From positions 1 to 23,655 of the forward strand of contig JBAZMG010000006.1 of NCBI GenBank assembly GCA_041649895.1: 23,655 nucleotides of DNA, given 5' to 3'. Each line of letters opens with the position of its first letter. The stretch's first letter is position 1. The notes beneath the pieces were generated by a model. The model made no database searches. It was not told the origin of the DNA and saw only the letters and a program-made list of their open reading frames with translations. The DNA comes from Minisyncoccota bacterium (GTDB taxonomy: Bacteria > Patescibacteriota > Minisyncoccia > Minisyncoccales > Minisyncoccaceae). This document shows, in pieces, positions 79-16,972 of this stretch. Made by a program: the position numbers and the translations under genes.

Positions 79-152
79 CGGGATGTCATATAACGGCATT
101 ATGCAGGCTTCGGGAGTCTGTCATCTGGGTTCAATTCCCAGCATCCCGACCA
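79..152 (+). tRNA. tRNA-Pro (anticodon CGG), CCA encoded
   Basis: Manual cloverleaf: acceptor CGGGATG/CATCCCG (7 bp), anticodon stem CAGGC/GTCTG with loop TTCGGGA, T arm CTGGG-TTCAATT-CCCAG, discriminator A followed by CCA; 74 nt. Confidence 0.85.
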
Positions 153-380
153 TTTTCCAATCTCTGACCATCTGGGAATTGAAGGCGGAGGCGCGACGGC
201 GCCGAGCCGGGCCCGAGGAACACACCAGCAGGTGGGTATCCGAGGGCAATTCCCAGCATCCCGACTATTTTCCAGTCTCTGACTTTTTGGGAATTGAAGG
301 CGGAGTCGCGACGGCGACGAGCCGGGCCCGAGGAACACGCCAACAGGTGTGTATCCGAGGGCAATTCCCAGCATCCCGAC
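132..380 (+). repeat. 115-bp tandem repeat (2 full units plus a 19-nt third start); each unit begins with the tRNA-Pro 3' T-arm/acceptor sequence and contains a GC-rich hairpin module
   Basis: CAATTCCCAGCATCCCGAC at 132-150, 247-265 and 362-380 (period exactly 115); units near-identical apart from a few substitutions. Confidence 0.9.
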
Positions 381-413
381 TATTTTACCCCTCAGTCCCC
401 CATTTTAACCATC

Positions 414-484
414 GGATCCGTATTTCAGTGGTAGAATACTACCTTCACACGGTAGAGATATGAGTTCGATTCTCATCGGATCCA
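414..484 (+). tRNA. tRNA-Val (anticodon CAC), no encoded CCA
   Basis: Manual cloverleaf: acceptor GGATCCG/CGGATCC, anticodon stem CTACC/GGTAG with loop TTCACAC, T arm ATGAG-TTCGATT-CTCAT, discriminator A; 71 nt. Confidence 0.8.
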
Positions 485-501
485 CCCCGTACTAGAGTTT
501 T

Positions 502-527
502 AAAAGCCGCGCTTTTGCGCGGTTTTA
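502..527 (+). terminator. Intrinsic-terminator-like hairpin after tRNA-Val
   Basis: AAAA-GCCGCGC-TTTT-GCGCGGT-TTTT: GC stem followed by a T run; nested inside a longer CCCCGTACT...AGTACGGGG helix (485-558 region). Confidence 0.55.
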
Positions 528-622
528 TAAAACACAGTACGGGGTAGCCCTGTAGTGTGTTTTGGCAAAGCCAAAACTCTACTACGGAGCACCACTTAGT
601 AGTCATCCCCCGTCTTTTAACC

Positions 623-650
623 AAAAACCACCCCAAAAGGGCGGTTTTTT
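623..650 (+). terminator. Second terminator-like hairpin (A-tract, stem, T-tract; possibly bidirectional)
   Basis: AAAAACCACCC-CAAAA-GGGCGGT-TTTTT; 7-bp stem with one mismatch, 6 T downstream, 5 A upstream. Confidence 0.45.
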
Positions 651-667
651 GACGTAAAATCACCCAT

Positions 668-683
668 AGTTCCACGTGGAACG
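668..683. promoter_or_regulatory. parS-like palindrome (variant)
   Basis: AGTTCCACGTGGAACG contains the perfect 14-bp palindrome GTTCCACGTGGAAC; 13/16 match to the chromosomal parS consensus TGTTNCACGTGAAACA. Confidence 0.5.
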
Positions 684-862
684 CCCGAAATTGGCTAAAA
701 TTACCCCTCTTCTACGTATTTATGCGACGAATGACTTGTCATTTTGAGGGAAGGCTTAATGGTTTTACATTTGCATTTCCTAAAATAACGTGGTCGTTAA
801 ATAACAGCACTCCCCTAGCCAATGATCAAATTGGGCTAATTACGACCAAAAATCAGTCAAAA

Positions 863-878
863 AGTTTCCCGTGAAACA
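863..878. promoter_or_regulatory. parS-like site
   Basis: AGTTTCCCGTGAAACA, 14/16 to the parS consensus. Confidence 0.6.
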
Positions 879-1029
879 CTATTTTTCCCGTTTTTCTAGA
901 AAATACGTCCTTTACCGTAAAAACATAGGTCATCTATGTTTTTTAGCCAAACCATATGTCAAAACATTAGAGCTTTCCCTATTTTTACCATATTACCTTA
1001 TATTACGATTTTTACCTATTTCGCCTGAA

Positions 1030-1045
1030 TGTTTCCCGTGAAACA
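1030..1045. promoter_or_regulatory. parS-like site
   Basis: TGTTTCCCGTGAAACA, 15/16 to the parS consensus TGTTNCACGTGAAACA. Confidence 0.65.
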
Positions 1046-1180
1046 CTATTTTGAGTGTTTTTCACCAAAAATAAGGTCACCTCATAAATTTAAGGTAAAC
1101 ATAATTAAAAAACATATACTTACCCTAATTTTTAATGGTCATTAATGATCACCAAAAACTAGTCAAATGCCTTAAAACTA

Positions 1181-1196
1181 TGTTTCACGGGAAACA
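1181..1196. promoter_or_regulatory. parS-like site (opposite orientation)
   Basis: TGTTTCACGGGAAACA is the exact reverse complement of the 1030 and 1523 sites. Confidence 0.65.
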
Positions 1197-1291
1197 TTTT
1201 GCCAAATTATGCAAAATTAAGGTCATTTAACATTTTTGACTAAATGTTATTGCAAAAACTTATCACTTCCCCAATTTTACCTAATGACCTT

Positions 1292-1485
1292 ATGTCCGCA
1301 TAAAGTGCTATTTTCTCTAAAAATGGCCGAAATGAGGTCATCTATGTTTTTTAGGGTAAAGATAAGTTGTTTTAATATGTTTTTACCAAATTATAGAGGT
1401 TGTCTATGTCCACATAATACCCCTTAAGTTCAGTCTACCAACCGGCGAATGTCCACATAAATGTCCACATAATTTATGCGGACAT
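1292..1485. promoter_or_regulatory. DnaA-box-like cluster I (5 boxes); candidate oriC left half or iteron set
   Basis: ATGTCC(A/G)CA at 1292, 1406, 1449, 1461 and inverted TGCGGACAT at 1477; extended 12-mer ATGTCCACATAA. Confidence 0.55.
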
Positions 1486-1522
1486 ACAACAAATATGCTT
1501 AGGAATGATAATTTTTTGCTAG

Positions 1523-1538
1523 TGTTTCCCGTGAAACA
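1523..1538. promoter_or_regulatory. parS-like site
   Basis: TGTTTCCCGTGAAACA, identical to the 1030 site. Confidence 0.65.
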
Positions 1539-1539
1539 C

Positions 1540-1750
1540 CCAAAAAATACACTTTAAAATTTTGGGGTGGACTATATGACTATCCCAATAAAATATCATT
1601 TAGAGGCTTATTTTTTATTTCCATACCCAATATTTTTGCTCACAGTGATGTTTTTTCTTTTTTAGCGGATTTGATATTTTATCAAAAATAAAGTATCAAA
1701 TTATACCTCAATATCTTAACAATAATCCTATTAACTCGCTTAATTTTACC
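1540..1750. other. AT-rich spacer between the box clusters; candidate DNA-unwinding region
   Basis: Long T/A runs (e.g. TTATTTTTTATTTCC, GTTTTTTCTTTTTTAG, TGATATTTTATCAAAAATAAAG); no ORF. Confidence 0.35.
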
Positions 1751-1753
1751 AAT

Positions 1754-1947
1754 ATGTCCGCAAAAATAGCTTATTACTTGATTTATGTCCGCATAAATGG
1801 CTATGTGGACATAAAAAAGCTATGTGGACAAATATGTGGACAAGTATCCCGAAATGTGGACAAATCCGGACATAGCTATGTCCACATAATGTCCGGATAT
1901 GTCCGCATAAATGTCCACATAATTTATGTGGACACGAATCCGGACAT
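1754..1947. promoter_or_regulatory. DnaA-box-like cluster II (13 boxes, both orientations)
   Basis: Three TGTGGACAA sites (1823, 1835, 1855) are the perfect complement of the DnaA-box variant TTGTCCACA. Further ATGTCC(A/G)CA or ATGTCCGGA variants and their complements start at 1754, 1785, 1804, 1865, 1878, 1889, 1899, 1911, 1927, 1939. Confidence 0.6.
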
Positions 1948-2047
1948 TCCAATGCCAACTAAAACATAAAAATGTATTATTTTTTAAATACTTAATGGAT
2001 GCGGATCGCTTTACGCTATTCATTAAAAATAATATAATTAAACCGAT

Positions 2048-2464
2048 ATGACCGCCGCTAATTCAAATCACAAGCTTCAGCTTGGGCAAATAGGGGAGAG
2101 TATAGCTCAAAAATACCTAATATCCAAGAAATACAAAATTTTGGATAAAAACTATTTTTTAAAGACCAAAACAAACCGCAAACTGGGAGAAATAGATCTT
2201 ATTGCCAAAAAGGGGAGTGTGTATGTTTTTATTGAAGTAAAAACAATAGCCGGCCGGGAGGGTAGGCGATTTCCACCCGCGGCAAAAATCAATCGTGTAA
2301 AAATAAAAAAGCTGATAAGGGTGGGGGAGAGCTGGCTTAAAAACCATAAACTTTCTTTGACTGTCCGGTGGCAAATTGATATAATTACTATTGAAATTGA
2401 CATTATTCGCAAAAAAGCCCTGGTCCGGCATTATGAAAACGCGATAGAAGATATTAAAAAATAA
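2048..2464 (+). CDS. yraN: YraN/UPF0102 family endonuclease-like protein
   Basis: 138-aa ORF with the family hallmark GEIDLIAKKGSVYVFIEVKT and typical size. Confidence 0.75.
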   Translation: MTAANSNHKLQLGQIGESIAQKYLISKKYKILDKNYFLKTKTNRKLGEIDLIAKKGSVYVFIEVKTIAGREGRRFPPAAKINRVKIKKLIRVGESWLKNHKLSLTVRWQIDIITIEIDIIRKKALVRHYENAIEDIKK

Positions 2465-2469
2465 ACTCT

Positions 2470-3102
2470 ATGCTTTCAAACCAAACTTTGCTGATCGTTT
2501 TAATTTTTTTCGGTTATCTTTTGGGTTCGATTCCGTTCGGATATCTTGTTGGAAAAATCAAAAATGTTGACATTAGGAAAAAAGGGAGTGGCGCCACAGG
2601 CGCGACCAACGTCTCCCGAACAGTGGGCTTTAAATATGCGATCTTGGTTGCGGCATTGGATATCGCTAAAGCGGTTCTACCTATATATATCGGGAGCCGT
2701 TTTTTTAATCCAAGCTGGAACGCAGATCCCGGGTGGCAAATGGCCCTAATCTCTATTGCTCCGGTATTAGGTCACATATTTCCAGTCTGGCTAAAATTCA
2801 AGGGAGGTAAGGGCGTGTCTGTTATCTTCGCTTGCATTATTATGGTAATGGGCTGGCAATACTCCTTAGTTCTTTTTGTCTTATGGCTGGCGCTCTTATT
2901 GCTTATAAAAACAATGAGTCTGACAAATATCTTAATTTTCCCGATTTTACCGTTCTTGTTTTGGTTCAGGACTCACTCTTGGGTGTATGTCTGGCTTGGT
3001 GTTTTTTATGTCCTTTTAATTTGGTGGGCGCATCGCGAGAATATAAAACGCATACGACAGGGGACTGAGCCGAAAACAATTCATAACAAAAATAAAGAAT
3101 AA
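2470..3102 (+). CDS. plsY: Glycerol-3-phosphate acyltransferase PlsY (acyl-phosphate dependent)
   Basis: 210-aa polytopic membrane ORF with GSIPFGYLVGK, GSGATGATNVSR and GHIFPVWLKFKGGKGV motifs. Confidence 0.85.
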   Translation: MLSNQTLLIVLIFFGYLLGSIPFGYLVGKIKNVDIRKKGSGATGATNVSRTVGFKYAILVAALDIAKAVLPIYIGSRFFNPSWNADPGWQMALISIAPVLGHIFPVWLKFKGGKGVSVIFACIIMVMGWQYSLVLFVLWLALLLLIKTMSLTNILIFPILPFLFWFRTHSWVYVWLGVFYVLLIWWAHRENIKRIRQGTEPKTIHNKNKE

Positions 3103-3127
3103 TAAAGCACGAATTAACTAATATTTA

Positions 3128-3300
3128 GGGCTTAATCCTTTTACAAATGATTAAGGGCGGAGCCGACGGCTTGATTGTACTCAATCACGGGCGCAGGGTT
3201 GACGAACCCGAGCCGGGCCTGAGGAAATTTTCAACAGAAAATTATCTGAAGGACGAGCCGGGACTTGAGCAAAACTTCAACAGGAGCTTATATGAAGGAA
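3128..3300 (+). repeat. Cluster of GC-rich structured modules (candidate ncRNA or leader) just upstream of the pilin array
   Basis: Hairpins CTTAATC/GATTAAG (3131-3155), AGCC-GAC-GGCT (3161-3171), TGATTG-TACT-CAATCA (3172-3187), GGGTT-GACG-AACCC (3196-3209), AATTTTC-AACA-GAAAATT (3226-3243). Invariant linkers GGGCGGAG and CGAGCCGGGCCTGAG are shared with the 181-247, 18599-18660 and 20213-20277 copies. Confidence 0.6.
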
Positions 3301-3320
3301 TCCTCAAACATTGAAAAACA

Positions 3321-4205
3321 ATGAAAAAAACTATAAAAAAACAATTTGCGTTTACATTAATAGAACTGCTTATCGTTATCGCAATAATCGGAATACTCTC
3401 TGCGTTGATTATCGTGGGAATGAATAATGCAACCCAAAAAGCGACAATCGCCAAAGCGCAAGTATTTTCCAATTCACTCCGTAATTCTTTGATGTCTGGC
3501 TTGTTTGCCGAGTATAAGCTCGATGGCAACGCCAGCGACACGTGGGGGACACACACAGCCGGAACAATCAGCGGCGCATCATCTTATGCGTCCTGTATAC
3601 AAAATACTTGCTATAGTTTCGATAGCGATGATGATTATATTGAACTCGCGGATGTCGCGGATTTAAGAATGATAACCGGAGGGACTATTTCCGTTTGGAT
3701 TTATCCAAAAAGCTACGGAGAGGGCACTCTTGGAAGAATAATTGATAAGTCGTCTTCGGGCGATTCCGGTTTAGGTGGTTATACTTTTAGGAATAGTTCT
3801 CTTAATAGATTATTGTTCGTAATAAATGACGGCACCAACACACTTACTCAACAAAACGTAATAACTTATAATCAATGGCAACTTGTGACAACTACTTTTA
3901 ATGATTCCGGTAGAAAGATATACGTTAACGGAATTGATAAAACGGCATCCGGAGGTAATGAAACAGATCTACCTCCCGACAGTACGGGAATAGTGGTTAG
4001 AATTGGAAACTCCGCATATGGAACAACCAGAACTTTTGACGGATATATTGATGATGTTCAAATATATAATCAAGTAATTCCGACTTCCCAAATCCAACAA
4101 AATTACTACGCGGGACTCAACAAACTTTTTGCCAACAGGGGAGTGGAAATATCTGAATACCAACAATGCTTAACTGAATTATCAAACAATTACGCTCAAC
4201 AGTAA
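3321..4205 (+). CDS. Type IV pilin-like N-terminus + LamG/concanavalin-A-like domain protein (paralog 1 of 9, most divergent)
   Basis: MKKTIKKQFA|FTLIELLIVIAIIGILSALI prepilin-type motif with Glu+5; LamG-type hallmarks (YSFDSDDDYIEL, TISVWIYP, FDGYIDDVQIYN); shared C-terminal tail QNYYAGLNKLFANRGVEISEYQQ. Confidence 0.85.
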   Translation: MKKTIKKQFAFTLIELLIVIAIIGILSALIIVGMNNATQKATIAKAQVFSNSLRNSLMSGLFAEYKLDGNASDTWGTHTAGTISGASSYASCIQNTCYSFDSDDDYIELADVADLRMITGGTISVWIYPKSYGEGTLGRIIDKSSSGDSGLGGYTFRNSSLNRLLFVINDGTNTLTQQNVITYNQWQLVTTTFNDSGRKIYVNGIDKTASGGNETDLPPDSTGIVVRIGNSAYGTTRTFDGYIDDVQIYNQVIPTSQIQQNYYAGLNKLFANRGVEISEYQQCLTELSNNYAQQ

Positions 4206-4232
4206 TGTTTGGGTATTCGATACCCAAACATT
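4204..4232. repeat. Intergenic palindrome type 1 (13-bp arms) upstream of an A-type pilin gene
   Basis: AATGTTTGGGTAT-TCG-ATACCCAAACATT, starting inside the stop codon of paralog 1. Confidence 0.8.
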
Positions 4233-4237
4233 GAAAA

Positions 4238-5176
4238 ATGATGAATAGAAATATAAAAACAAATTTGGCATTTACATTGATAGAACTACTTGTGGTTATC
4301 GCAATCATCGGGATTTTATCTGCATTAATTATCATTGGGATGAGCTCGACAACACAGAAAGCTAGTGTTGCCAAGGCGCAGGTGTTTGCCAATTCTTTGC
4401 GCAATTCATTGATGGCGGATATGGTTTCTGAGTGGAAGCTTGATGGAAACACCAATGATACTTGGGCGGCCTCATTTGCAAACAACGGAACCTGGTGGGG
4501 AACGACCGCGCCGAATACCGTCGCAACCTATGGAACTGCGTCCGAATGCGTTTCCGGACAATGTATGGATTTTGATGGCGTGGATGATATGGTGGACTTT
4601 GGGAGCAACGCTTCTTTATCTATGGGAACAAAAGATCACACAGTCTCTTTATGGGTTAAGTTTGATAATGCGACCGCAACAGACATAGACACATTGGTTA
4701 TCTGTGGAGCAATGACGGGAACAGGGAAAGATGGGTATTGGATTACAAGACTTACCGATAGATTATACTTTTATTTTACTGATGGAGAAGGAGCAAATAC
4801 AAGAATTGCCGGCTATTTATCCGCAGCCGGAACATTAATTGCTAATAATTGGTATCAAATAACCGTAACTATGGATAGGGACGGAAATGTAACGGGATAT
4901 ATAAACGGAACATCGCAAATAAGTTGGGCTATTTCTCCTCAGCCTGGAGACGTACAAAATTCCATAAGCTTTCGAATGGGAGCTTTTACTACATCCCTGT
5001 ATCGTCTCGCCGGTAAAATGGATGAAGTGAGAATTTTTCACGCTATTACGACAATATCTCAAATAGAGCAAAACTACTTCGCGGGACTGAACAAACTTTT
5101 TGCCAACAGGGGAGTGGAAACATCAGAATACCAACAACGCTTAACTGAATTATCAAACAATTACGCACGGGATTAA
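4238..5176 (+). CDS. Pilin-like + LamG-domain protein (paralog 2, subtype A); real start may be the second ATG at 4241
   Basis: M(M)NRNIKTNLA|FTLIELLVVIAIIGILSALI; EWKLDGNTNDTW...CMDFDGVDDMVDFG...TVSLWVKFDNA...GKMDEVRIFHAI; preceded by palindrome 4204-4232. Confidence 0.85.
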   Translation: MMNRNIKTNLAFTLIELLVVIAIIGILSALIIIGMSSTTQKASVAKAQVFANSLRNSLMADMVSEWKLDGNTNDTWAASFANNGTWWGTTAPNTVATYGTASECVSGQCMDFDGVDDMVDFGSNASLSMGTKDHTVSLWVKFDNATATDIDTLVICGAMTGTGKDGYWITRLTDRLYFYFTDGEGANTRIAGYLSAAGTLIANNWYQITVTMDRDGNVTGYINGTSQISWAISPQPGDVQNSISFRMGAFTTSLYRLAGKMDEVRIFHAITTISQIEQNYFAGLNKLFANRGVETSEYQQRLTELSNNYARD

Positions 5177-5206
5177 AATGTTTGGGGGTTAAACCCCCAA
5201 ACATTT
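5176..5206. repeat. Intergenic palindrome type 2 (13-bp arms)
   Basis: AAATGTTTGGGGG-TTAAA-CCCCCAAACATTT. Confidence 0.8.
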
Positions 5207-5213
5207 AAAAACG

Positions 5214-6104
5214 ATGAATAGAAATATAAAAACAAAATTGGCATTTACATTGATTGAGCTACTTGTGGTAATTGCAATCATCGGGATTTTATCCGCTTTG
5301 ATCATTATTGGGATGAGCTCGACAACGCAGAAAGCAAACATTGCAAAATCACAAATATTTGCCAATTCTTTGCGCAATTCATTGATGGGGGACATGGTTT
5401 CGGAGTGGAAGCTTGACGAAGGAGCTGGCGATACAATATCTGATACGTGGGGCAGCAATAATGGAACAAAAGCTGGGGCAACATGGGAAGCAATAACAAC
5501 CAACTGCGTCTACGGCAAGTGCTTATCTTTTGATGGTGATGCTGATAATATAAATTTCGGAAATAAAACTGATTTTAATTTGGCTAGCACAAGCCACACT
5601 ATTTCGGTTTGGTTTAAAACAAGTACGACAACTACTGACCATATAATTAGTCGCTTTAACGGCGGAAGTCCCGGCGCTGGATATGTTATTTTTGTGTCCT
5701 CTGGAAAGGTTTGTTTTTCGGAAAGAGCAGACGGGGGAGACTTTCTTGCCCGCGATTCAGCGCTAACCTACAATGATAATTCTTGGCATTTTGTAACTTA
5801 CACGGTTGATATTTCTTTAAAAACAGGGAGGTTTTGCATTGATGGAACTTTTTTGCCCCTGGATACTTATACTGGAAACTTAATAAATTATAATAATAAT
5901 TTATATATCGGTGGACCACAGGTAGGATACTATTTTACTGGCCTAATAGACGATATACGCATATATGATGCCGCAATGCCAGCTTTCCAAATCAACGAAC
6001 AATATTACACCGGATTGAATAAACTTTTGGCAAACAGGGGAGTGGAAACATCTGAATACGAGCAAAGAATCGTAGAATTAAATTATAATTATGCAGAAAA
6101 TTAA
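5214..6104 (+). CDS. Pilin-like + LamG-domain protein (paralog 3, A-type leader, divergent body)
   Basis: MNRNIKTKLA|FTLIELLVVIAIIGILSALI; CLSFDGDADNINFG...TISVWFK...FTGLIDDIRIYDAAM; preceded by palindrome 5176-5206. Confidence 0.85.
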   Translation: MNRNIKTKLAFTLIELLVVIAIIGILSALIIIGMSSTTQKANIAKSQIFANSLRNSLMGDMVSEWKLDEGAGDTISDTWGSNNGTKAGATWEAITTNCVYGKCLSFDGDADNINFGNKTDFNLASTSHTISVWFKTSTTTTDHIISRFNGGSPGAGYVIFVSSGKVCFSERADGGDFLARDSALTYNDNSWHFVTYTVDISLKTGRFCIDGTFLPLDTYTGNLINYNNNLYIGGPQVGYYFTGLIDDIRIYDAAMPAFQINEQYYTGLNKLLANRGVETSEYEQRIVELNYNYAEN

Positions 6105-7047
6105 AATTAACGCATTTACATTGATAGAACTACTTGTGGTTATTGCAATCATCGGAATTTTATCTGCTTTAATTGTTATCGGGATGAGCTCGACAACGCA
6201 AAAAGCCAGTGTTGCAAAAGCGCAAGTATTTGCGAATTCTCTGCGCAATTCGTTGCTGGCGGATATGGTTTCGGAGTGGAAATTGGATGACGGGACTGGA
6301 AACAGCACCACAAAAGATTCCTGGGCTTCGGCTTTTGCCAATACGGGGACCTTGGGAACAGCGGCAGTAGGGGATGCAAGCGAGCCCACATGGCTAAGTA
6401 CCGGTTGTGTTTCCGGAAACTGTCTTTCGTTTGACGGCGCTGATGATTATGTTGATTTCGGAAATAATGCGTCCCTATCAATGGGAACTAAAGATCATAC
6501 TGTATCACTCTGGGTTAAGTTTGATAATGCAACAGCGCCCGCTCCTAATAATGCGGAAACGCTGGCTCGTTGTGGGGTCCAAGCTGCCGGAGTTGGGCGG
6601 GATGGATATTGGATTTATAGGACTGGGAGTAGTCTATTTTTTTATTTTTCTGATGGTTCGGCGGATAGCATAGGCGGCTCATTATCAGGGTCCGGGACAC
6701 TAATAGCTAACACTTGGTATAACATAGTTGTTGCACTCGATAGAGATATTTCTGCCTATATGTATATAAATGGAGTTAAACAAACAGGCTACTCATTAAA
6801 TATCGTACCACAAAATGGAGACGTACAAAATACATCCTTGTTAATGATTGGGGCAACTTCAGCTGGCTATGGTCGGCTTGACGGTCAAATGGATGAGGTA
6901 AGAATCTTTCACGCTATTACGACAATATCTCAAATAGAGCAGAACTACTTTGCCGGACTGAACAAACTTTTGGCAAACAGGGGAGTGGAAACGTCTGAAT
7001 ATGAGCAAAGAGTCGCGAATTTAACTTCAAACTATGCAAAGAATTAA
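6091..7047 (+). CDS. Pilin-like + LamG-domain protein (paralog 4, subtype B)
   Basis: MQKIKINA|FTLIELLVVIAIIGILSALI; EWKLDDGTGNSTTKDSWAS...CLSFDGADDYVDFG; ATG lies inside the previous gene's NYAEN-stop codons (14-nt overlap). Confidence 0.85.
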   Translation: MQKIKINAFTLIELLVVIAIIGILSALIVIGMSSTTQKASVAKAQVFANSLRNSLLADMVSEWKLDDGTGNSTTKDSWASAFANTGTLGTAAVGDASEPTWLSTGCVSGNCLSFDGADDYVDFGNNASLSMGTKDHTVSLWVKFDNATAPAPNNAETLARCGVQAAGVGRDGYWIYRTGSSLFFYFSDGSADSIGGSLSGSGTLIANTWYNIVVALDRDISAYMYINGVKQTGYSLNIVPQNGDVQNTSLLMIGATSAGYGRLDGQMDEVRIFHAITTISQIEQNYFAGLNKLLANRGVETSEYEQRVANLTSNYAKN

Positions 7048-7978
7048 AATTAACGCATTTACTTTGATAGAACTGTTGGTTGTAATAGCGATCATCGGTA
7101 TTTTATCTGCGTTGATTGTTGTGGGTATGAGCTCGGCGACGCAGAAAGCCAGTGTTGCAAAAGCGCAAGTATTTGCTAATTCTTTGCGGAATTCCTTAAT
7201 GGCGGATATGGTTTCCGAATGGAAATTAGATGACGGAACCGGAAACAGCACAACGAAAGATTCCTGGGCTTCGACTTTTACTAATACCGGGACACTGGGG
7301 ACTGCGACGGTAGGGGATGCAAGCGAGCCCACATGGCTAAGTACTGGTTGCGTTTCTGGAAACTGTCTATCTTTCGATGGAGCTGACGACTATGTTAATT
7401 TTGGCAATAACGCTTCATTGAGTATGGGAACAAAAGATCACACAATATCTTTATGGGTTGAATTTATTAATCCAACGGCACTGCAAGATGAAACAATGAT
7501 TCGCACGGGAGCTGGCGGTAGTGGAGCTGGCTATTGGATTTATAGATTTACCGGAACAAATAAATTAAGGTTTCTTTTTCATGACGGAGTTGGTTCGCAG
7601 GCATCCGGATATTTGTCGGCGGATGGCACATTAGTTGCTGGTATTTGGTATAATATAGCTATAATAATGGATAGGGATTCCAATGCCCAAGCTTATATAA
7701 ACGGGCAAATACAAACCAGTTACCCAATAGTTATATCTGGAAACCAAGGAACTATACAAAATGTTACAAATCTAATGGTTGGAGCGCAAGACGCGTCAAC
7801 ACGACGGCTTACCGGCAAAATGGATGAAGTAAAAATATTTCACGCAATACCGTCAATCTCCCAAATTCAACAAAACTATTACGCCGGACTGAACAAACTT
7901 TTGGCAAAAAGAGGGGTGGAAACATCAGAATATGAGCAAAGAGTCGCGGATTTAATTTCAAACTACGCAAAAGAATAA
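7034..7978 (+). CDS. Pilin-like + LamG-domain protein (paralog 5, subtype B)
   Basis: MQRIKINA|FTLIELLVVIAIIGILSALI; same architecture; 14-nt overlap with paralog 4. Confidence 0.85.
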   Translation: MQRIKINAFTLIELLVVIAIIGILSALIVVGMSSATQKASVAKAQVFANSLRNSLMADMVSEWKLDDGTGNSTTKDSWASTFTNTGTLGTATVGDASEPTWLSTGCVSGNCLSFDGADDYVNFGNNASLSMGTKDHTISLWVEFINPTALQDETMIRTGAGGSGAGYWIYRFTGTNKLRFLFHDGVGSQASGYLSADGTLVAGIWYNIAIIMDRDSNAQAYINGQIQTSYPIVISGNQGTIQNVTNLMVGAQDASTRRLTGKMDEVKIFHAIPSISQIQQNYYAGLNKLLAKRGVETSEYEQRVADLISNYAKE

Positions 7979-8005
7979 TGTTCGGGTATTCGATACCCAG
8001 ACATT
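7977..8005. repeat. Intergenic palindrome type 1 (one mismatch, one G-U)
   Basis: AATGTTCGGGTAT-TCG-ATACCCAGACATT. Confidence 0.75.
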
Positions 8006-8010
8006 GAAAA

Positions 8011-8955
8011 ATGATGAATAGAAATATAAAAACAAATTTGGCATTTACGTTGATTGAGCTATTGGTCGTAATAGCGATTATTGGTATTCTTTCGGCTTTG
8101 ATCGTTATTGGGATGAGCTCGACAACTCAAAAAGCTAGTGTTGCCAAGGGCCAAGTATTTGCTAATTCTTTACGCAATTCGTTAATGTCAGATATGGTCT
8201 CGGAGTGGAAATTGGATGGAAACACTAACGACACTTGGGCGGCCTCGTACGCGAACAACGGAACTTGGTCAGGTCCAACCGCGCCAAACACAGTCGCTAC
8301 TTATGGACCGGCAGCTGAATGCGTTTCCGGACAATGTATGGATTTTGATGGAGTGGACGATTTAGTTGATTTTGGAAATAACGCTTCGCTATCAATGGGA
8401 ACAAAAGATCACACAGTCTCTTTATGGATTAAGTTTGACAATGCAACAGCCCCACAACACGAAGTTTTGATTATTAGTGGCGGCAACATTGTTGCTCCTG
8501 GATATGCTGGTTATGATATTTTAAGATACACCGGAATGAGTCGACTATATGTTGAATTTTCCGATGGCTCGGCAAATAATGTCGGTGCCTATTTATCCGC
8601 ATCGGGAACATTAGTATCTAATATTTGGTATAATATAGTAGTAATTTTTGACAGAGACGGAGTTGCCAAGGCATATATTAACGGATTGTCACAGGCGGGA
8701 ACATTAAATATATCGGTTCAACCGGGCAATGTACAAAATATTTACAACTTAAGGTTGGGGGCGTGGACACCGTCCCAATTTCGTCTTGCTGGTAAAATGG
8801 ATGAAGTGAGAATATTTCACGCGATAACAACACTTTCCCAAATTCAGCAAAACTACTACGCGGGACTGAACAAGCTTTTTGCAAACAGGGGAGTGGAAAC
8901 ATCCGAATATCAACAAAGGATCGTAGAATTAAATTCGAATTATGCAAAGAATTAA
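8011..8955 (+). CDS. Pilin-like + LamG-domain protein (paralog 6, subtype A); start may be 8014
   Basis: M(M)NRNIKTNLA|FTLIELLVVIAIIGILSALI; N-terminal ~150 aa near-identical to paralog 2; preceded by palindrome 7977-8005. Confidence 0.85.
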   Translation: MMNRNIKTNLAFTLIELLVVIAIIGILSALIVIGMSSTTQKASVAKGQVFANSLRNSLMSDMVSEWKLDGNTNDTWAASYANNGTWSGPTAPNTVATYGPAAECVSGQCMDFDGVDDLVDFGNNASLSMGTKDHTVSLWIKFDNATAPQHEVLIISGGNIVAPGYAGYDILRYTGMSRLYVEFSDGSANNVGAYLSASGTLVSNIWYNIVVIFDRDGVAKAYINGLSQAGTLNISVQPGNVQNIYNLRLGAWTPSQFRLAGKMDEVRIFHAITTLSQIQQNYYAGLNKLFANRGVETSEYQQRIVELNSNYAKN

Positions 8956-9895
8956 AATCAACGCATTCACATTAATAGAACTACTTGTGGTTATTGCAAT
9001 CATCGGGATTTTGTCTGCATTAATTATCATTGGGATGAGCTCGACAACACAGAAAGCTAGTGTTGCCAAGGCGCAAGTGTTCGCTAATTCTCTACGTAAT
9101 TCATTGATGTCGGATATGGTTTCGGAGTGGAAGCTTGATGATGGGACAGGAAACAGCACAACGAAAGATTCCTGGGCTTCGACTTTTACAAATACGGGGA
9201 CCTTGGGAACCGCAGCAGTGGGGGATGCAAGCGAGCCCACATGGCTAAGTACTGGTTGCGTTTCCGGAAACTGTCTTTCTTTTGACGGCACCGACGATTA
9301 TGTTGATTTTGGGAGCAATGCGTCTTTATCTATGGGGACTAAAGACCATACTGCGTCATTCTGGGTTAAATTTGATAATGCGGTAGCAATAGAAAATAAT
9401 ACACTGATTAAATGCGGGGCCTTCGGCGCCTCTCTTGGATCAGACGGATACTGGCTTGTTAGATTAAACGGTACAAACAAACTATATTGTTATTTCTCCG
9501 ACGGAGAAACAACAACATTGCTTGGTAATTATTTATCCGCGGATGGTTCTTTGGTTGCCGATACTTGGTACAATATTGTTGTAATGTTCGACAGGAGCGG
9601 AGTGGCTCAAGCATACATAAATGGCGTAATACAATCAGGAACACTAAACATATCATCACAAACAGGAGACGTGCAAAATAGTAGAAGTTTTACTATTGGA
9701 GCCTGGTCAGCAACACTACATCGATCCGCTGGCAAAATGGACGAAGTACGAATATTCCACGCGATTACGACACTTTCTCAAATTCAACAAAACTACTTCG
9801 CAGGACTGAACAAACTTTTGGCTAATGGGGAAGTGGAAACATCAGAATACCAACAACGCTTAACTGAATTATCAAACAATTACGCACGGGATTAA
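8942..9895 (+). CDS. Pilin-like + LamG-domain protein (paralog 7, subtype B N-terminus with the paralog-2 type C-terminus)
   Basis: MQRIKINA|FTLIELL...; the last 64 nt of the CDS plus the downstream hairpin are 100% identical to 5113-5210. Confidence 0.85.
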   Translation: MQRIKINAFTLIELLVVIAIIGILSALIIIGMSSTTQKASVAKAQVFANSLRNSLMSDMVSEWKLDDGTGNSTTKDSWASTFTNTGTLGTAAVGDASEPTWLSTGCVSGNCLSFDGTDDYVDFGSNASLSMGTKDHTASFWVKFDNAVAIENNTLIKCGAFGASLGSDGYWLVRLNGTNKLYCYFSDGETTTLLGNYLSADGSLVADTWYNIVVMFDRSGVAQAYINGVIQSGTLNISSQTGDVQNSRSFTIGAWSATLHRSAGKMDEVRIFHAITTLSQIQQNYFAGLNKLLANGEVETSEYQQRLTELSNNYARD

Positions 9896-9925
9896 AATGT
9901 TTGGGGGTTAAACCCCCAAACATTT
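9895..9925. repeat. Intergenic palindrome type 2 (identical to 5176-5206)
   Basis: AAATGTTTGGGGG-TTAAA-CCCCCAAACATTT. Confidence 0.8.
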
Positions 9926-9931
9926 AAAACA

Positions 9932-10870
9932 ATGAATAGAAATATAAAAACAAAATTGGCATTTACATTGATAGAATTATTGGTCGTGATTGCAATCATC
10001 GGGATACTTTCGGCTTTGATCATTATTGGGATGAGTTCGACGACACAGAAAGCTAGTGTTGCCAAATCGCAGGTGTTTGCCAATTCATTGCGCAATTCTT
10101 TGATGGCGGATATGGTTTCAGAATGGAAATTGGACGGGAATACTAACGATACTTGGGCGTCTTCAAATGCGAACAACGGAACGTGGTCGGGACCAACCGC
10201 GCCGAATGCCGTCGCTACTTACGGGACGGCAGCCGAATGCGTCTCCGGACAATGTATGGATTTTGACGGTGTGGATGATGTAGTTGATTTTGGAAATAAC
10301 GCTTCGTTATCAATGGGAACAAAAGATCACACAGTCTCTATTTGGGTTAAATTCGATAACGCATCACCCCCAACAGAAGAAGAAACATTAATTTTTTGCG
10401 GCGGAACAGTGGCCGCGACAGAAGGCTATTGGATCAGGAGACAAATTGGAGGAACAGGAATTTATTTTTGTTTTAACGATGGCTCGGCAACAAGGGCTAA
10501 CGGTGCTTTATCAGCGAACGGAACTTTAATTAATAATATTTGGTATAATATAGTAATAACAATGGACAGAGATTCTAATGCCCAAGCATATATAAATGGA
10601 CAAAAACAAACTGGTTATGTTGTTAGTCTCTCCTCTTGGCAAACCGACATACAGAATACTTATAATTTCCAAATTGGTGGATTTGGAGCTGTTTATACAA
10701 TGGCGGGAAAAATTGATGAAGTAAGAATATTCAATGCGATAACAACACTTTCTCAAATTCAACAAAATTACTTTGCAGGACTGAACAAACTTTTTACCAA
10801 CAAGGGAGTGGAACCGTCTGAATACCAAAAAGAGGTCACGAATTTAATTTCAAACCATGCAAAGAATTAA
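9932..10870 (+). CDS. Pilin-like + LamG-domain protein (paralog 8, subtype A)
   Basis: MNRNIKTKLA|FTLIELLVVIAIIGILSALI; preceded by palindrome 9895-9925. Confidence 0.85.
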   Translation: MNRNIKTKLAFTLIELLVVIAIIGILSALIIIGMSSTTQKASVAKSQVFANSLRNSLMADMVSEWKLDGNTNDTWASSNANNGTWSGPTAPNAVATYGTAAECVSGQCMDFDGVDDVVDFGNNASLSMGTKDHTVSIWVKFDNASPPTEEETLIFCGGTVAATEGYWIRRQIGGTGIYFCFNDGSATRANGALSANGTLINNIWYNIVITMDRDSNAQAYINGQKQTGYVVSLSSWQTDIQNTYNFQIGGFGAVYTMAGKIDEVRIFNAITTLSQIQQNYFAGLNKLFTNKGVEPSEYQKEVTNLISNHAKN

Positions 10871-11816
10871 CAAAGCATTTACATTAATTGAGCTATTGGT
10901 TGTGATAGCGATTATTGGTATTCTTTCGGCTTTGATCGTTATTGGGATGAGCTCAACAACACAGAAAGCCAGTGTTGCCAAGGCGCAAGTGTTTGCGAAT
11001 TCTCTGCGCAATTCGTTGCTGGCGGATATGGTTTCGGAGTGGAAATTGGATGACGGGACTGGAAACAGCACCACAAAAGATTCGTGGGCTTCGGTTTATG
11101 CCAATACGGGAACATTGGGAACAGCGGCGGTGGGGGACGCGAGCGAGCCAACATGGCTAAGTACCGGTTGCGTTTCCGGAAACTGCCTTGATTTTGACGG
11201 CGCTGACGATTATGTTGATTTTGGAAGCAATGCGTCTTTATCTATGGGGACTAAAGACCATATTGCGTCATTCTGGGTTAAATTTGATAATGCAGTGGCG
11301 GGCGCGCAACCCGAAACGCTAATAGTTTGCGGTTCAGTTACCGGTGGGGCGACTGGAGACGATGGTTATTGGATTGTACGCTATCAAGGAACAAGCAAAA
11401 TAAGAGGATATTTTTCTGATGGTTCGGCGGCATATATCGGCGGAGATTTATCTGCTAATAGTGTTTTTGTCGCTAATACTTGGTATAACATAGTAACAAC
11501 TTTTGATAGAGATGGAGTTGTTCAGGCATATGTTAATGGATTAAAACAAACGGGTTATTCAATAAACATTGCTCCTCAACAAGGAGATGTACAAAATTAT
11601 ATGAATTTGCGAATTGGAGCCTATTCGGCAACCGGACACCGTCTCGATGGTCAAATGGATGAGGTAAGAATCTTTCACGCCATAACAACGCTGTCTCAAA
11701 TAAAGCAAAACTATTACGCAGGACTGAACAAACTTTTTGCCAAAAACTCCCTAAATAGGGTAGAATATGAGTATAGGATGGCGGAATTACAAACTTCATC
11801 TTTAGCAAACAAATGA
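10857..11816 (+). CDS. Pilin-like + LamG-domain protein (paralog 9, subtype B, divergent C-terminal tail)
   Basis: MQRINKA|FTLIELLVVIAIIGILSALI; 14-nt overlap with paralog 8; its TGA stop overlaps the next gene's ATG (ATGA at 11813-11816). Confidence 0.85.
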   Translation: MQRINKAFTLIELLVVIAIIGILSALIVIGMSSTTQKASVAKAQVFANSLRNSLLADMVSEWKLDDGTGNSTTKDSWASVYANTGTLGTAAVGDASEPTWLSTGCVSGNCLDFDGADDYVDFGSNASLSMGTKDHIASFWVKFDNAVAGAQPETLIVCGSVTGGATGDDGYWIVRYQGTSKIRGYFSDGSAAYIGGDLSANSVFVANTWYNIVTTFDRDGVVQAYVNGLKQTGYSINIAPQQGDVQNYMNLRIGAYSATGHRLDGQMDEVRIFHAITTLSQIKQNYYAGLNKLFAKNSLNRVEYEYRMAELQTSSLANK

Positions 11817-13189: not shown

Positions 13190-15001
13190 TTGATATTTAT
13201 GGATACAATAACGTACAAAGAACTACAAAAAATGATCCTCTTTTCCGGGGAGAGGGTTAATAGAGATAAAGAACAAATAAACAAGATCAATGTATTTCCG
13301 GTTCCGGACCAGGACACGGGCTCTAATTTGGCTGCGACATTAAAGGGAATAAAAGAAGCGATTGAAGGCAAAGAATTCGGCTCAATGGAAGAATTCGCGA
13401 ACACCGTTTTGGACAGCGCCCTGACTGCGGCGCAAGGCAATGCCGGAATTATTTACACCGGATTTTTGGCCGGGTTTTTGCCCGCGATAAGCGACGTGGA
13501 AGAAGTTGATGCCAAAAAGCTTGGCAATGCTTTTAAGCTCGGATACGAGCGAGCAAAAGACTCAATCCAAAATCCGAAAGAGGGAACTATTTTAGATGTT
13601 GTCCACGCTTTTGCCGAAACTTTTAACGAGTTATCAGAAGAAAAAGAAGATATCATCGAAATATTTTACGAATCTTTCGGGAAGGCCAACCAGGCCCTGC
13701 TTGATACGCCGAATAAAATGGAATTACTGAAAAAGGCCGGCGTGGTTGATGCCGGGGGATTGGGATTTTTAATGATCCTTGAAACCTACCTTGATACGCT
13801 AAAGGAACAGACCGTGGAAAAGGTCGCGGCAAAACCCTTCCTTGCTCCGGGCGAAGAATCAGCCACGAGAAAGTTCGTCCAAATTCTATCAAACCGATAC
13901 GAAGTGGTCGCCCTGTTGGCAAATCCGAACTTAAAAGAAAAAGAGATCAGGGACAAACTGAAAAATCTGGGCAATTGCCTTGATATTATCCAAATCGCGA
14001 ACCGAATAAAGATACACATCCACACCGATGACCCTTATGAGACCAGAGATATTATTTCCAATATGGGTACGGTCGAAAATCTGAGAATTCAGGATATGGC
14101 GAGGGAAGTGGTGGGAGAAGAGTCGATGGAAAACGTTTCCATCGGCATTGTAATCGATGAACGCGCGGGATTGAGCCAAAAAATAATCCAGCATTATGAT
14201 ATTGAAGTAATCCCGTTCCGTATCACCTGGCCGGAAGAACAAAACTTGCCCGGGCACAACGTGTGCGAAAAAATAAAAGAAGCGAAAAAGAAGGGATTGA
14301 ACACCAAACCGAAGATCTCTTCCATTTCTCCGGAATTCTTTATGGAATCGTACAAAAAACAATTGGAAAAATTTGAAACTATTATCTGCATTGTCAGTAG
14401 CTCCAAACTTTCCGACAACTACAATTCCGCCCTGAAAGCGCGGGAAATGCTAAATTGGAATATGAGAGAAAGGGTTTTTGTCGTTGATTCGAAAAACATC
14501 AGCGCCGGACAATCCCTTGTGGTTTTGGAAGCGATCGAGCTCATCCGGGAACAGAGAAAAATAAAAGAAATAAAAGAACGCTTGGAAGTGGCGATTCCTC
14601 AGATCAATCTGCTCGGCATTTTAAAAAACGCGGCGTGGTGGAAAAAAGACAATCCGACCGCGAAGTTTTGGTTTACCAAAGAAAAACCGCAAGATTCTTT
14701 TTGGCTCATAGAAACAAAAGATGGAAAAATCAATCCAACGGAAAAAGTAAGATCAAATGATTTCGCCGACGTCTTGTTCAAAAAAATAGAACGGGCCGCG
14801 CGAAGAGACTTGCGAGAAGGTAAAAAGATCAGAGTGGTTATCGCGCACGCCGACAGCCTGGATCAAGCGGAAAAGCTCAAAGAAAAATTAAAGACCACGA
14901 AACGGGCTGATATTTCCTTTATCAGTATCACAGATCCGGTCACAAGCATAAACGCTTGCCCGGACAGCCTTATAGTGGCGTGGATCGTTCACCCGAGTTA
15001 A
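13190..15001 (+). CDS. DAK2-domain protein of the YloV/FakA (fatty acid kinase) type with a C-terminal DegV-like domain; start may be 13199
   Basis: NVFPVPDQDTGSNLAATL and KKAGVVDAGGLGFLMILE (Dak2/YloV hallmarks). The C-terminal half (from VSIGIVIDERAGL) is paralogous to the two downstream DegV genes. Confidence 0.75.
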   Translation: MIFMDTITYKELQKMILFSGERVNRDKEQINKINVFPVPDQDTGSNLAATLKGIKEAIEGKEFGSMEEFANTVLDSALTAAQGNAGIIYTGFLAGFLPAISDVEEVDAKKLGNAFKLGYERAKDSIQNPKEGTILDVVHAFAETFNELSEEKEDIIEIFYESFGKANQALLDTPNKMELLKKAGVVDAGGLGFLMILETYLDTLKEQTVEKVAAKPFLAPGEESATRKFVQILSNRYEVVALLANPNLKEKEIRDKLKNLGNCLDIIQIANRIKIHIHTDDPYETRDIISNMGTVENLRIQDMAREVVGEESMENVSIGIVIDERAGLSQKIIQHYDIEVIPFRITWPEEQNLPGHNVCEKIKEAKKKGLNTKPKISSISPEFFMESYKKQLEKFETIICIVSSSKLSDNYNSALKAREMLNWNMRERVFVVDSKNISAGQSLVVLEAIELIREQRKIKEIKERLEVAIPQINLLGILKNAAWWKKDNPTAKFWFTKEKPQDSFWLIETKDGKINPTEKVRSNDFADVLFKKIERAARRDLREGKKIRVVIAHADSLDQAEKLKEKLKTTKRADISFISITDPVTSINACPDSLIVAWIVHPS

Positions 15002-15051
15002 ACAATTTTGCTTTGCAAAATTAGCGCATAGCGCTGTTTAACCGGGTAAAA

Positions 15052-15086
15052 TAAGAATAAAGAATCAGGAATCAAGAATTAAGAAT
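15052..15086 (+). repeat. Five in-phase heptamer repeats NARGAAT upstream of the first degV gene
   Basis: TAAGAAT AAAGAAT CAGGAAT CAAGAAT TAAGAAT. Confidence 0.7.
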
Positions 15087-15132
15087 AAAAACAGGGAACG
15101 ATTCCAATTCATAAAAATTAGATATTAAATCA

Positions 15133-16026
15133 ATGGAAACAGAAAACCAAAACAAAAAATTAATTGGCATCGTGGCCGACGAGGCCGTTGACCTGCCTGA
15201 TTCAATTGTACAAGAAAACGAGATATCGCTCGTAAAATTCAAATTGGATTTCGAAGAACTAAAGGATGTTCCCGGCAATGTTTATGAAAAAATGCGCGAG
15301 GGAGAGAGAAGGGGACTCAAGACCATTGCCAAGACATCACAACCATCCATTAATGACTTTTTAGGCGCGTACCGGGAAAAACTGAAAAGATTTGAAGAGA
15401 TAATTTGCTTCACCATATCGGGAAAACTATCAGGAACTTTTAACTCCGCTTTACAGGCAACAAAATTTTTACCAAAAGAAGCCCAAGATAAAATTCATCT
15501 GGTTGATACATTGAACGCAACCGGGGGAGAAGGTCTTGTAGCTTTGTGGGCAGCCGATATGATCAAAGAAGCAAAATTGAAAGCCGGAGAGATCGCGGAA
15601 ACAATACGGAAAAATGTTTCCAATTTCAAACTGATCGGGATCTATGGAACACCGAAATGGCTTGAAGCGAGCGGACGCTTGCCAAAATTTTTGCCGGCAC
15701 CCTTGAGGCAAGCGGAAAAAATGAACCTCAAGCCTATTTTTGCCCTGAAAAACGGAAAGATTACTTTTATAAGCATTCGAAAAAACTTAAATGGCATCGC
15801 GAATACTCTATTCCAAGAGTTTGAAAAGCAAACTCTGGCGGCGCGCAATCAAGGAAAAAAGATCAGAGCCGCGATCACTCACGGCGACAACCCGGCTGGA
15901 GCGGAAGAACTGAAAAATTTGGTCTCAAGTTTGGAAAATGTAAAAGTGGAGTTTATAAGCCTGGCTTGTTTTCCGATCGGAGGACATGTCGGCCCGGAAT
16001 CATTAGTGCTTTCCTGGCAACAATAA
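15133..16026 (+). CDS. DegV family fatty-acid-binding protein (FakB-like)
   Basis: IGIVADEAVDLP, TSQPSINDFLGAY, ISGKLSGTFNSALQA; 297 aa. Confidence 0.85.
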   Translation: METENQNKKLIGIVADEAVDLPDSIVQENEISLVKFKLDFEELKDVPGNVYEKMREGERRGLKTIAKTSQPSINDFLGAYREKLKRFEEIICFTISGKLSGTFNSALQATKFLPKEAQDKIHLVDTLNATGGEGLVALWAADMIKEAKLKAGEIAETIRKNVSNFKLIGIYGTPKWLEASGRLPKFLPAPLRQAEKMNLKPIFALKNGKITFISIRKNLNGIANTLFQEFEKQTLAARNQGKKIRAAITHGDNPAGAEELKNLVSSLENVKVEFISLACFPIGGHVGPESLVLSWQQ

Positions 16027-16096
16027 CCCCCACCTTTTTAAAAAAGATGGGGGCAAAAAAGAATAAAAATAAAGAAACACTAATTGCATAAAATAT

Positions 16097-16972
16097 ATGA
16101 GTATCAAAATCATCGTAGGCGAAAGCGCCCCCACGACTCCGGATATTGTGGCAAAGTACGGTTTTGCGACCGTACCGTTTAAGATCGATTGGCCCGAGTT
16201 CGACACCATTAAGGGCAATACGCTTTTTCAAAAAATGCGCGAAGCGAAAAAGCAAGGCATCAAAACCACCCCCAAAACTTCTCAGCCGTCTATAGGCATA
16301 TACAAAAAAGCTTTTGACGAAGCCCTTGTCGACAACGAATATATTCTCGCGATCACTATCAGCTCCGGCATCTCGGGAACTTACAACTCCGCCATTCAAG
16401 CAAAAAAGATGTTCAGTGAAGACGCGCAAAAAAAGATCTATGTTTTTGATACATTTAACGCCGATGCCGCGGAAAGCTTGTTTGCCATTAAAGCGGGGGA
16501 TATGGCGGTGCAAGAAAAGACCATTGATGAAGTAATGGCAAAATTGGAAGAATTAAAACCATCAGCCAAACTGTACGGATTTTTGGACGACCCTTATTGG
16601 CTTGAGGCCGGAGGCAGGATCAGCCATGCCGTAGCCGTAATAATGGCGCAAATGCAAAAGATCGGAATGCGGCCTCTTTTGTCAATGAAAGACGGGGTTG
16701 TTAAGCCGGCGAATCTGAAAATGCAAGCCAAGGACACGGCCGATGCTTTGTTTAAACAGCTGGAAAGCATTGTAAAAGATCCTCTCGCGGACGGGAAAAA
16801 GGTAAGCGTTGCCATAAGCCACGCGGACAATCCCGGAGAGGCCGAAAACTTGAAAAAAATGATCGAAGAAAAATATCCTAGCGCTAAAATAGAATTCGTG
16901 ACCGAGACCGGTCCGGTGATCGGCGCGCACATCGGACCCGGATCATTAATTTGCTGCTGTTTAATAGATTAA
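16097..16972 (+). CDS. DegV family fatty-acid-binding protein (FakB-like), second paralog
   Basis: TSQPSIGIYKKAF, ISSGISGTYNSAIQA, GPVIGAHIGPGS; 291 aa. Confidence 0.85.
   Translation: MSIKIIVGESAPTTPDIVAKYGFATVPFKIDWPEFDTIKGNTLFQKMREAKKQGIKTTPKTSQPSIGIYKKAFDEALVDNEYILAITISSGISGTYNSAIQAKKMFSEDAQKKIYVFDTFNADAAESLFAIKAGDMAVQEKTIDEVMAKLEELKPSAKLYGFLDDPYWLEAGGRISHAVAVIMAQMQKIGMRPLLSMKDGVVKPANLKMQAKDTADALFKQLESIVKDPLADGKKVSVAISHADNPGEAENLKKMIEEKYPSAKIEFVTETGPVIGAHIGPGSLICCCLID

Follow-up and report, generated by a model that had tools for sequence, protein, structure and literature searches.

The window analysed here is a 23,655-nt stretch of DNA from a Minisyncoccota bacterium (GenBank assembly GCA_041649895.1, contig JBAZMG010000006.1, positions 1 to 23,655 of the forward strand) and represents one end of a 32.7-kb metagenome contig, position 1 being the contig end. 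Between a tRNA-Val gene and yraN the window contains a region free of open reading frames (ORFs), spanning 487-2047, in which palindromes of the parS type, that is, sites of the kind bound by the partition protein ParB (Spo0J), stand together with two clusters of DnaA-box-like octamers. As developed below, we consider this region a probable chromosomal replication origin (oriC) that carries its own parS centromere. The first-pass annotation, which was made from the letters of the DNA, had described the interval 660-1540 as a dense ORF-free array of five parS-like palindromes and had compared it with a plasmid-type centromere.

Five parS-type sites in an ORF-free region

Matching the parS consensus TGTTNCACGTGAAACA with up to 3 mismatches across the window yielded exactly five parS-like sites (10 strand-matches versus 0.67 expected; 0 of 100 shuffles reached 10), at the places where the first-pass annotation had put them: four sites that agree with the consensus at 14-15 of 16 positions and, to their left, a site built on a perfect 14-nt palindrome. 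None of the five is assigned a strand.

668-683: fifth parS-like site, AGTTCCACGTGGAACG, 3 mismatches, all at outer positions
863-878: parS site, AGTTTCCCGTGAAACA, 2 mismatches, 14/16 match
1030-1045: parS site, TGTTTCCCGTGAAACA, 1 mismatch, 15/16 match
1181-1196: inverted parS site, TGTTTCACGGGAAACA, 1 mismatch, 15/16 match, sitting in a 46-nt inverted copy of the 1030 site
1523-1538: parS site, TGTTTCCCGTGAAACA, 1 mismatch, 15/16 match, bordering an AT-rich stretch

All of them are packed into less than 0.9 kb of ORF-free DNA, and the same scan found no further parS-like site, either in the rest of the window or in the 9 kb by which the contig extends beyond it. The CCGT/ACGG centre that had been noticed in the four main sites is indeed common to them, the exact variant TGTTTCCCGTGAAACA covering those at 863, 1030, 1181 and 1523 (8 strand-matches versus 0.27 expected). 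This centre is not an assembly error, because a second contig, from an independent sequencing run (SRR8542065), is base-for-base identical to window 558-4148. The 668 site belongs to the C5/G12 type found in the closest relatives (loci L005-L008), which use TGTTCCACGTGGAACA and whose first site stands at the equivalent place after tRNA-Val; the perfect 14-nt palindrome that it contains reads GTTCCACGTGGAAC. The interval 660-1540 is also ORF-free as described, its longest ORF measuring 63 aa and lacking a Pfam match, and Rfam returned no family in the region at E ≤1 other than the flanking tRNAs; a non-coding RNA or a small protein was rejected as its identity on these grounds. We conclude that the palindromes of the window are, by their sequence, parS-type sites to which ParB is predicted to bind.

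DnaA-box clusters on both sides of an AT-rich stretch

In and next to the parS interval we found 15 octamers of the DnaA-box type TGTCCRCA, which the first-pass annotation had not reported. All of them fall within 1293-1934 and none elsewhere in the window; by chance, 0.96 octamers would be expected. They form two clusters, separated by AT-rich DNA (again, no strand is assigned):

1293-1485: DnaA-box cluster I, five TGTCCRCA (1293, 1407, 1450, 1462 and 1477), two of them 12 nt apart
1540-1750: AT-rich stretch, 22-31% GC, between the box clusters; candidate DNA-unwinding element by presumed role
1754-1947: DnaA-box cluster II, ten TGTCCRCA and three ATGTCCGGA on both strands with 10-12-nt spacing, including three TTGTCCACA

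Many boxes are arranged as same-strand arrays with a spacing of 10-12 nt. Two extended forms, ATGTCCRCATAA and TTGTCCACA, agree with the consensus of DnaA boxes, TTATCCACA, in 7-8 of 9 positions; the second of them is the box type of Streptomyces and Mycobacterium. Canonical TTATCCACA at up to 1 mismatch showed no enrichment across the window (10 versus 6.2 expected), the local box type being TGTCCRCA. The parS site at 1523 is located between cluster I and the AT-rich stretch, 38 nt from the nearest box, which is the last one of cluster I.

The array occupies one conserved locus in related genomes

The first-pass annotation had proposed comparing the synteny of this intergenic region in related genomes; our comparison covered 105 loci around PlsY relatives taken from genome and metagenome collections. 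In GTDB, the nearest relatives are bins of Paceibacterota/Parcubacteria, among them Ca. Microsyncoccus archaeolyticus (Minisyncoccaceae), whose locus L029 carries the array. A scan of 1.16 Mb of related loci with up to 2 mismatches placed 62 of the 63 parS sites across 21 related loci, many of them perfect 16/16 matches, within 3 kb upstream of plsY and only one elsewhere, so the sites are not the generic repeat that had been raised as a possible refutation. Wherever PlsY identity reaches at least 58% and some upstream DNA is available, each distinct locus has 1-5 parS sites within those 3 kb, even L040, which shows one site in just 135 nt of upstream DNA. They also occur at the more distant syntenic loci L017 and L018, and none was found at loci of other lineages or of plsY paralogues.

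The identity of the sites as parS is supported by their counterparts at the syntenic place, which score 15-16/16 against the consensus: the closest relatives, L005-L008, carry the perfect palindrome TGTTCCACGTGGAACA, and the others the canonical TGTTTCACGTGAAACA, often at 16/16. Over ~60 sites, the CACGTG core and G2, T3, T4 and C6 are near-invariant, positions 5 and 12 covary symmetrically and the outer bases are loose, a pattern of variation in these putative sites that matches known parS behaviour. It also bears on the idea that the palindromes are RNA or DNA hairpin signals, such as terminators or processing signals of the tRNA genes and cca, which resemble parS by chance. The covariation of positions 5 and 12 would preserve a stem, the C7 of the window sites would lie in the loop and hence be neutral, and in compact relatives a site lies against the stop codon of cca and against the tRNA-Pro 3′ end. 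Nevertheless, loop and stem bases alike are near-invariant, with no free covariation; no T-run follows the sites; they occur in both orientations and far from gene ends; and identity with the parS consensus is exact. We regard a hairpin signal as very improbable.

DnaA-box-like octamers follow the same distribution, with 86 of 93 located within 800 nt of the parS array in 16 clade loci. Moreover, when an unbiased screen compared the 8-mers of the intergenic regions with those of 232 kb of flanking DNA, two motif families dominated, the DnaA box and parS, and in several genomes parS sites are 11-40 nt away from DnaA boxes. The order of the locus is clpP-tig-nusA on the minus strand, then cca, tRNA-Ala, tRNA-Pro and in some cases tRNA-Val, then parS sites and DnaA boxes, then, on the plus strand, yraN (not always present) and plsY, followed further on by rpsO and pnp. 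This layout, with the same housekeeping neighbours, is kept in about 20 related genomes. The entire unit needs only ~350 nt in compact relatives, where one parS site directly adjoins the stop codon of cca, four boxes occupy the space from tRNA-Ala to tRNA-Pro, and a parS site comes 1-2 nt after tRNA-Pro.

A repeat module as the probable source of the array

The first-pass annotation had also pointed to AGGTCA motifs at 927, 1074, 1220 and 1335, the last without a parS site, to a 20-nt block repeated at 927 and 1335, and to a degenerate module of ~150 bp as their possible source. All four motifs are present on the plus strand and, with a further copy on the minus strand at 1285, they make up 5 of the 9 AGGTCA copies of the window, within 414 nt. 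The block is an exact repeat, listed here with a conserved element further to the left:

713-750, plus strand: conserved element TACGTATTTATGCGACGAATGACTTGTCATTTTGAGGG, found by the 8-mer screen and by the comparison of relatives
927-946, plus strand: module sub-element AGGTCATCTATGTTTTTTAG, 20-nt exact repeat
1335-1354, plus strand: second exact copy of AGGTCATCTATGTTTTTTAG, no adjoining parS site, decayed module

Weaker copies of the AGGTCATCTATGTTTTTTAG sub-element are found at 1074-1096 and 1220-1252. What the module looks like when intact can be seen in two relatives. The L006 array is a true tandem repeat of 156 nt in 3.6 copies, with a higher-order period of 312 nt (2 copies, 93% identity), and L008 has the same structure. 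Each unit contains one parS site and, ~45-60 nt downstream, an element of the form RRTCAT-N5-7-TTTT-N-AGR. The AGGTCATCTATGTTTTTTAG block of the window is this element, and its 14-mer TCATCTATGTTTTT is found exactly in the L006 modules at a similar distance from parS; the AGGTCA motif belongs to the repeat module, and the suggestion of a degenerate module was well founded. In the window itself only ~45 nt around each parS site can be aligned, including one inverted copy, full modules have a mean column identity of 49%, and Tandem Repeats Finder reports no array there; what is left are spacings of 167, 151 and 342 nt between parS sites and short shared flanks. We suggest that the sites arose through duplication of a module of ~150-170 bp, made up of parS and the RRTCAT..TTTTT.AG sub-element, which persists as a clean tandem repeat in the two relatives. 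CtsR and IHF sites were considered for the AGGTCA element and rejected, as neither consensus fits in a by-eye comparison.

The conserved element at 713-750, a related one of ~45 nt, ACGTATTT..GACGAATGA.., follows the first parS site and has the general form ACGTATTTwwGmGACGAATGAyTwG..TTTT.AG. In L006, L007 and L008 two inverted copies of it enclose the parS array (L006 8602 and, on the minus strand, 9307; L007 8536 and 9111, minus; L008 8595 and 9286, minus), and L005 has it at 8385.

Dense, iterated non-coding sites, and in particular the tandem modules of L006 and L008, do recall the centromere arrays of plasmids, and a remnant of a plasmid or island integrated beside tRNA genes could be imagined from the tRNA-adjoining location and the duplicated tRNA 3′ ends described below. 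The likeness to a plasmid-type centromere was the one originally drawn, and it did not hold. The contig is chromosomal, because it carries tRNA genes, yraN-plsY, rpsO and pnp; the region has no integrase, rep or par gene and no ORF of any kind; a comparison with 72,556 plasmid records gave no match; the sites are of the chromosomal parS type; and the region bears the marks of an oriC. A plasmid-type centromere is effectively refuted by the conserved chromosomal synteny, and we give it next to no credence.

The CCGT centre makes the main sites asymmetric

The CCGT centre is specific to this organism, GTTTCCCGTGAAAC being absent from all other loci among the 109 scanned, and ~47 array sites of the relatives retain CACGTG, with two single-base exceptions. 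The base that is changed corresponds to half-site position 6, and C6 is present in one half only in all four main sites. The Noc-binding site (NBS) and parS differ only at positions 1 and 6, and C6 is read by R201 of Noc-type variants (PMC7383237). The main sites of the window thus read, at the sequence level, as putative parS in one half and parS with an NBS-type base in the other. Their likeness to the NBS of Firmicutes, TATTTCCCGGGAAATA, is limited to this C6, one of the two distinguishing bases. The window sites keep the parS-type G1 in both halves, their second half is fully parS, and they are clustered at the putative origin, whereas NBS are dispersed genome-wide; in addition, Noc occurs in Firmicutes only (PMC7383237). 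An NBS was consequently rejected as the identity of these sites.

Since flanks are shared among the sites, the CCGT variant would go back to one mutated copy that spread through duplication or conversion. All four main sites have retained it as the modules around them diverged, which suggests that the local ParB may tolerate or even prefer it. A fixed asymmetric parS variant is in this respect a small natural experiment on ParB specificity.

A candidate replication origin with a built-in centromere

The GC skew of the window is negative up to ~2000 and positive afterwards, and in 13 of 13 loci it is negative to the left of the array and positive to the right. Gene orientation diverges at the same place, clpP-tig-nusA lying on the minus strand and the genes from yraN-plsY onward on the plus strand. 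DnaA genes are present in Paceibacterales, as annotation tables show. We interpret window 487-2047 as the likely chromosomal oriC of a Paceibacteria bacterium (Patescibacteria, or candidate phyla radiation, CPR) with a built-in parS centromere, that is, a ParB loading array, and assign this interpretation a probability of roughly 0.7.

Several observations weigh against it. At this scale the GC skew cannot be told apart from a coding-strand bias, its minimum being usually at the nusA-cca junction, 1-2.5 kb to the left of the array. Compact relatives show just 2-4 recognisable boxes and have no long AT-rich stretch. The dnaA gene is not adjacent: tblastn over the 1.16 Mb of related loci, using Pfam-validated sequences of Spo0J, Soj and DnaA as seeds, found no ParB, ParA or DnaA gene on the 32.7-kb contig or within 10 kb on either side of any array, and in Minisyncoccus archaeiphilus the ~570 genes that follow dnaA do not include the plsY/nusA locus. 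No ParA or ParB is listed among the first ~570 genes of the complete genome of that species, and the complete table of 866 coding sequences of the Paceibacterales bin PMX_810_sub has no K03497, K03496 or HTH_ParB protein. Finally, the four main sites have C at half-site position 6 in one half, a position that separates parS from the Noc site (PMC7383237).

Some of these observations would suit a different arrangement, in which the parS array is the chromosomal centromere, the box clusters are a DnaA-titrating or DnaA-regulated locus and oriC is elsewhere, for example beside dnaA. The distance of more than 10 kb from dnaA in all relatives, the compact relatives and the offset between skew minimum and boxes all fit. 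On the other hand, skew and gene orientation switch at the locus in all 13 loci, at least 15 closely spaced boxes surround an AT-rich gap, and parS sites normally cluster near oriC and mark the origin region (PMC7333895). Taking both sides into account, we think an origin elsewhere unlikely.

The missing par genes raise another question, namely whether a conserved, origin-proximal array that is real is read by a non-canonical protein, either a divergent or an unrecognised ParB-like factor. A reader other than canonical ParB comes into consideration because the lineage may lack ParABS. The supplementary tables for PMX_810_sub (PMC10936435, PMC9600506) list dnaA-dnaN and no ParA or ParB orthologue by KEGG Orthology or Pfam annotation, and their sole ParB-like entry is a 131-aa protein of the SerK type with a ParB-like nuclease domain; our search of the literature and its supplements yielded no positive record of ParB in this phylum. 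Against this, without the helix-turn-helix of ParB it is difficult to account for perfect copies of the universal parS 16-mer whose variable positions follow the known pattern, and PMX_810_sub is a bin from a different family, which may be incomplete and may have no parS array. To us a non-canonical reader seems rather doubtful. Two outcomes would be the most novel, although we hold it improbable that either is true: (a) that canonical parS arrays in the Paceibacteria origin are read by another protein, with no recognisable ParABS, or (b) that the ParB of this species has drifted to a parS/NBS hybrid site. In case (b) this ParB would bind a site that is asymmetric in itself and would represent a natural intermediate on the way from ParB to Noc specificity, and in both cases a partition complex would form directly on DnaA boxes and might gate initiation.

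Proposed mechanism and significance

Under the interpretation as an origin with a centromere, DnaA would bind the TGTCCRCA arrays at 1293-1485 and 1754-1947 and open AT-rich DNA that lies between these arrays or next to them. Dimers of ParB would load at the four TGTTTCCCGTGAAACA sites, and perhaps also at the relic site at 668, and spread over the origin, giving rise to a partition complex that would separate newly replicated origins and load SMC. This complex probably influences initiation as well, because in several genomes parS sites are so close to DnaA boxes (11-40 nt).

A parS array near oriC is expected biology, and the element is of an ordinary kind, although unusually compact. What is distinctive here is how tightly parS sites and DnaA boxes are packed, with tRNA genes in their midst, together with the asymmetric variant and the tandem modules that some relatives have. 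A search of full texts found nothing on chromosome replication or segregation in Patescibacteria/CPR. The locus, with cca, tRNA-Ala/Pro/Val, parS sites and DnaA boxes, and yraN/plsY, would offer a conserved origin-plus-centromere landmark for Paceibacteria, which could be used to orient genome bins, to estimate replication rates and to build shuttle vectors, and the array is testable in the one cultivated family, Minisyncoccaceae (L029).

Neighbouring genes and other features of the window

The ORF-free region is delimited by the following features:

79-152, plus strand: tRNA-Pro(CGG), by ARAGORN and Rfam; same gene and place in 11 relatives
414-486, plus strand: tRNA-Val(CAC), by ARAGORN and Rfam; left boundary of the ORF-free region
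2010-2038, plus strand: promoter-like TTTACG-17-TATAAT, upstream of yraN
2048-2464, plus strand: yraN (UPF0102), opens the plus-strand run and marks the right edge of the region

Terminator-like hairpins follow tRNA-Val at ~497-530, 538-554 and 629-655; neither these nor the promoter-like sites are above chance. Besides tRNA-Pro, tRNA-Val and yraN, the contig carries tRNA-Arg, tRNA-Lys, three plsY paralogues, fakA/degV, rpsO and pnp. No other assembly with the upstream ORF was found that would extend the contig to the left.

Directly after tRNA-Pro there is a tandem repeat (window 132-386, units 153-267 and 268-382) of 115 nt in 2.2 copies, whose counterpart in L006 (7976-8314) has 105 nt and 3.2 copies. 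Each unit ends in an exact copy of the tRNA T-stem plus the 3′ strand of the acceptor (CAATTCCCAGCATCCCGAC), preceded by a GC-rich insert with two hairpins, the stems of which differ between the window and L006 by compensatory changes. The repeat has a minimum free energy of -47.4 kcal/mol (z = -2.2) and no Rfam match, and looks like either a structured element that is conserved or the relic of a mobile element that targets tRNA genes. In the spacer between tRNA-Pro and tRNA-Val of L007, an ORF for a GIY-YIG endonuclease (7844-8263) overlaps the tRNA-Pro gene, which suggests possible homing-endonuclease activity at this spacer.

To the right of the origin candidate, nine tandem paralogues of ~300 aa (window 3321-11816) combine an N-terminal prepilin methylation motif with a LamG/concanavalin-like domain, as would fit a cassette of diversified pilins or adhesins. 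The three PlsY paralogues (2470-3102, 17106-17810 and 17815-18483), together with a FakA-DegV fusion and two further DegV genes (13190-16972), form an expanded module devoted to phospholipids and the scavenging of fatty acids. One ORF (19487-19987) has a significant match to the type IV secretion system pilin family T4SS-pilin (PF18895), and two large ORFs (454 and 462 aa) give weak, sub-threshold matches to it, in the contig beyond the window (L003 18756-21513). A 698-aa ORF that follows pnp has no Pfam match.

Comparison with known systems

The nearest known counterpart is the chromosomal ParB/Spo0J-parS system of B. subtilis, C. crescentus, P. aeruginosa (parS1-4) and S. pneumoniae, with which the locus shares 16-bp palindromes of the TGTTNCACGTGAAACA type, present in several copies near the origin at one conserved locus. 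In these model species parS sites are spread over kilobases and are often intragenic, whereas those of the window are interleaved with DnaA boxes and tRNA genes in less than 0.9 kb of ORF-free DNA. The 156-bp tandem module of the window's relatives and the asymmetric C6 of its four main sites are further differences. As regards the origin, parS sites of these systems are confined to the neighbourhood of oriC, and the ParB complex of P. aeruginosa around parS1-4 is described as overlapping oriC (PMC10419367).

Among plasmid systems, the sopC centromere of F is a tandem array of ~43-bp modules. The modules of L006 and L008 resemble it in being non-coding and arranged head to tail, with one palindromic site of the ParB-family type in each. 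They differ in their length of ~156 bp and in their chromosomal parS-type sequence, and the window locus is chromosomal, with conserved housekeeping synteny, no adjacent parAB operon and no plasmid similarity.

As a DnaA-dependent origin, the region is similar to bipartite origins such as that of H. pylori (PMC3479198), in that AT-rich DNA is enclosed by two clusters of close 9-mer boxes (TTGTCCACA/ATGTCCACA type) where skew and gene orientation switch. It differs in that the candidate origin is not beside dnaA/dnaN and has tRNA genes and parS sites inside.

The physical union of both elements can be compared with chromosome 2 of Vibrio cholerae, whose origin contains a ParB2 site that modulates initiation. 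There the initiator is RctB and not DnaA, the parS2 sequence is another one and the chromosome is a secondary one; in both cases, however, the partition site is located within the origin region, which provides a precedent for a coupling of segregation and initiation.

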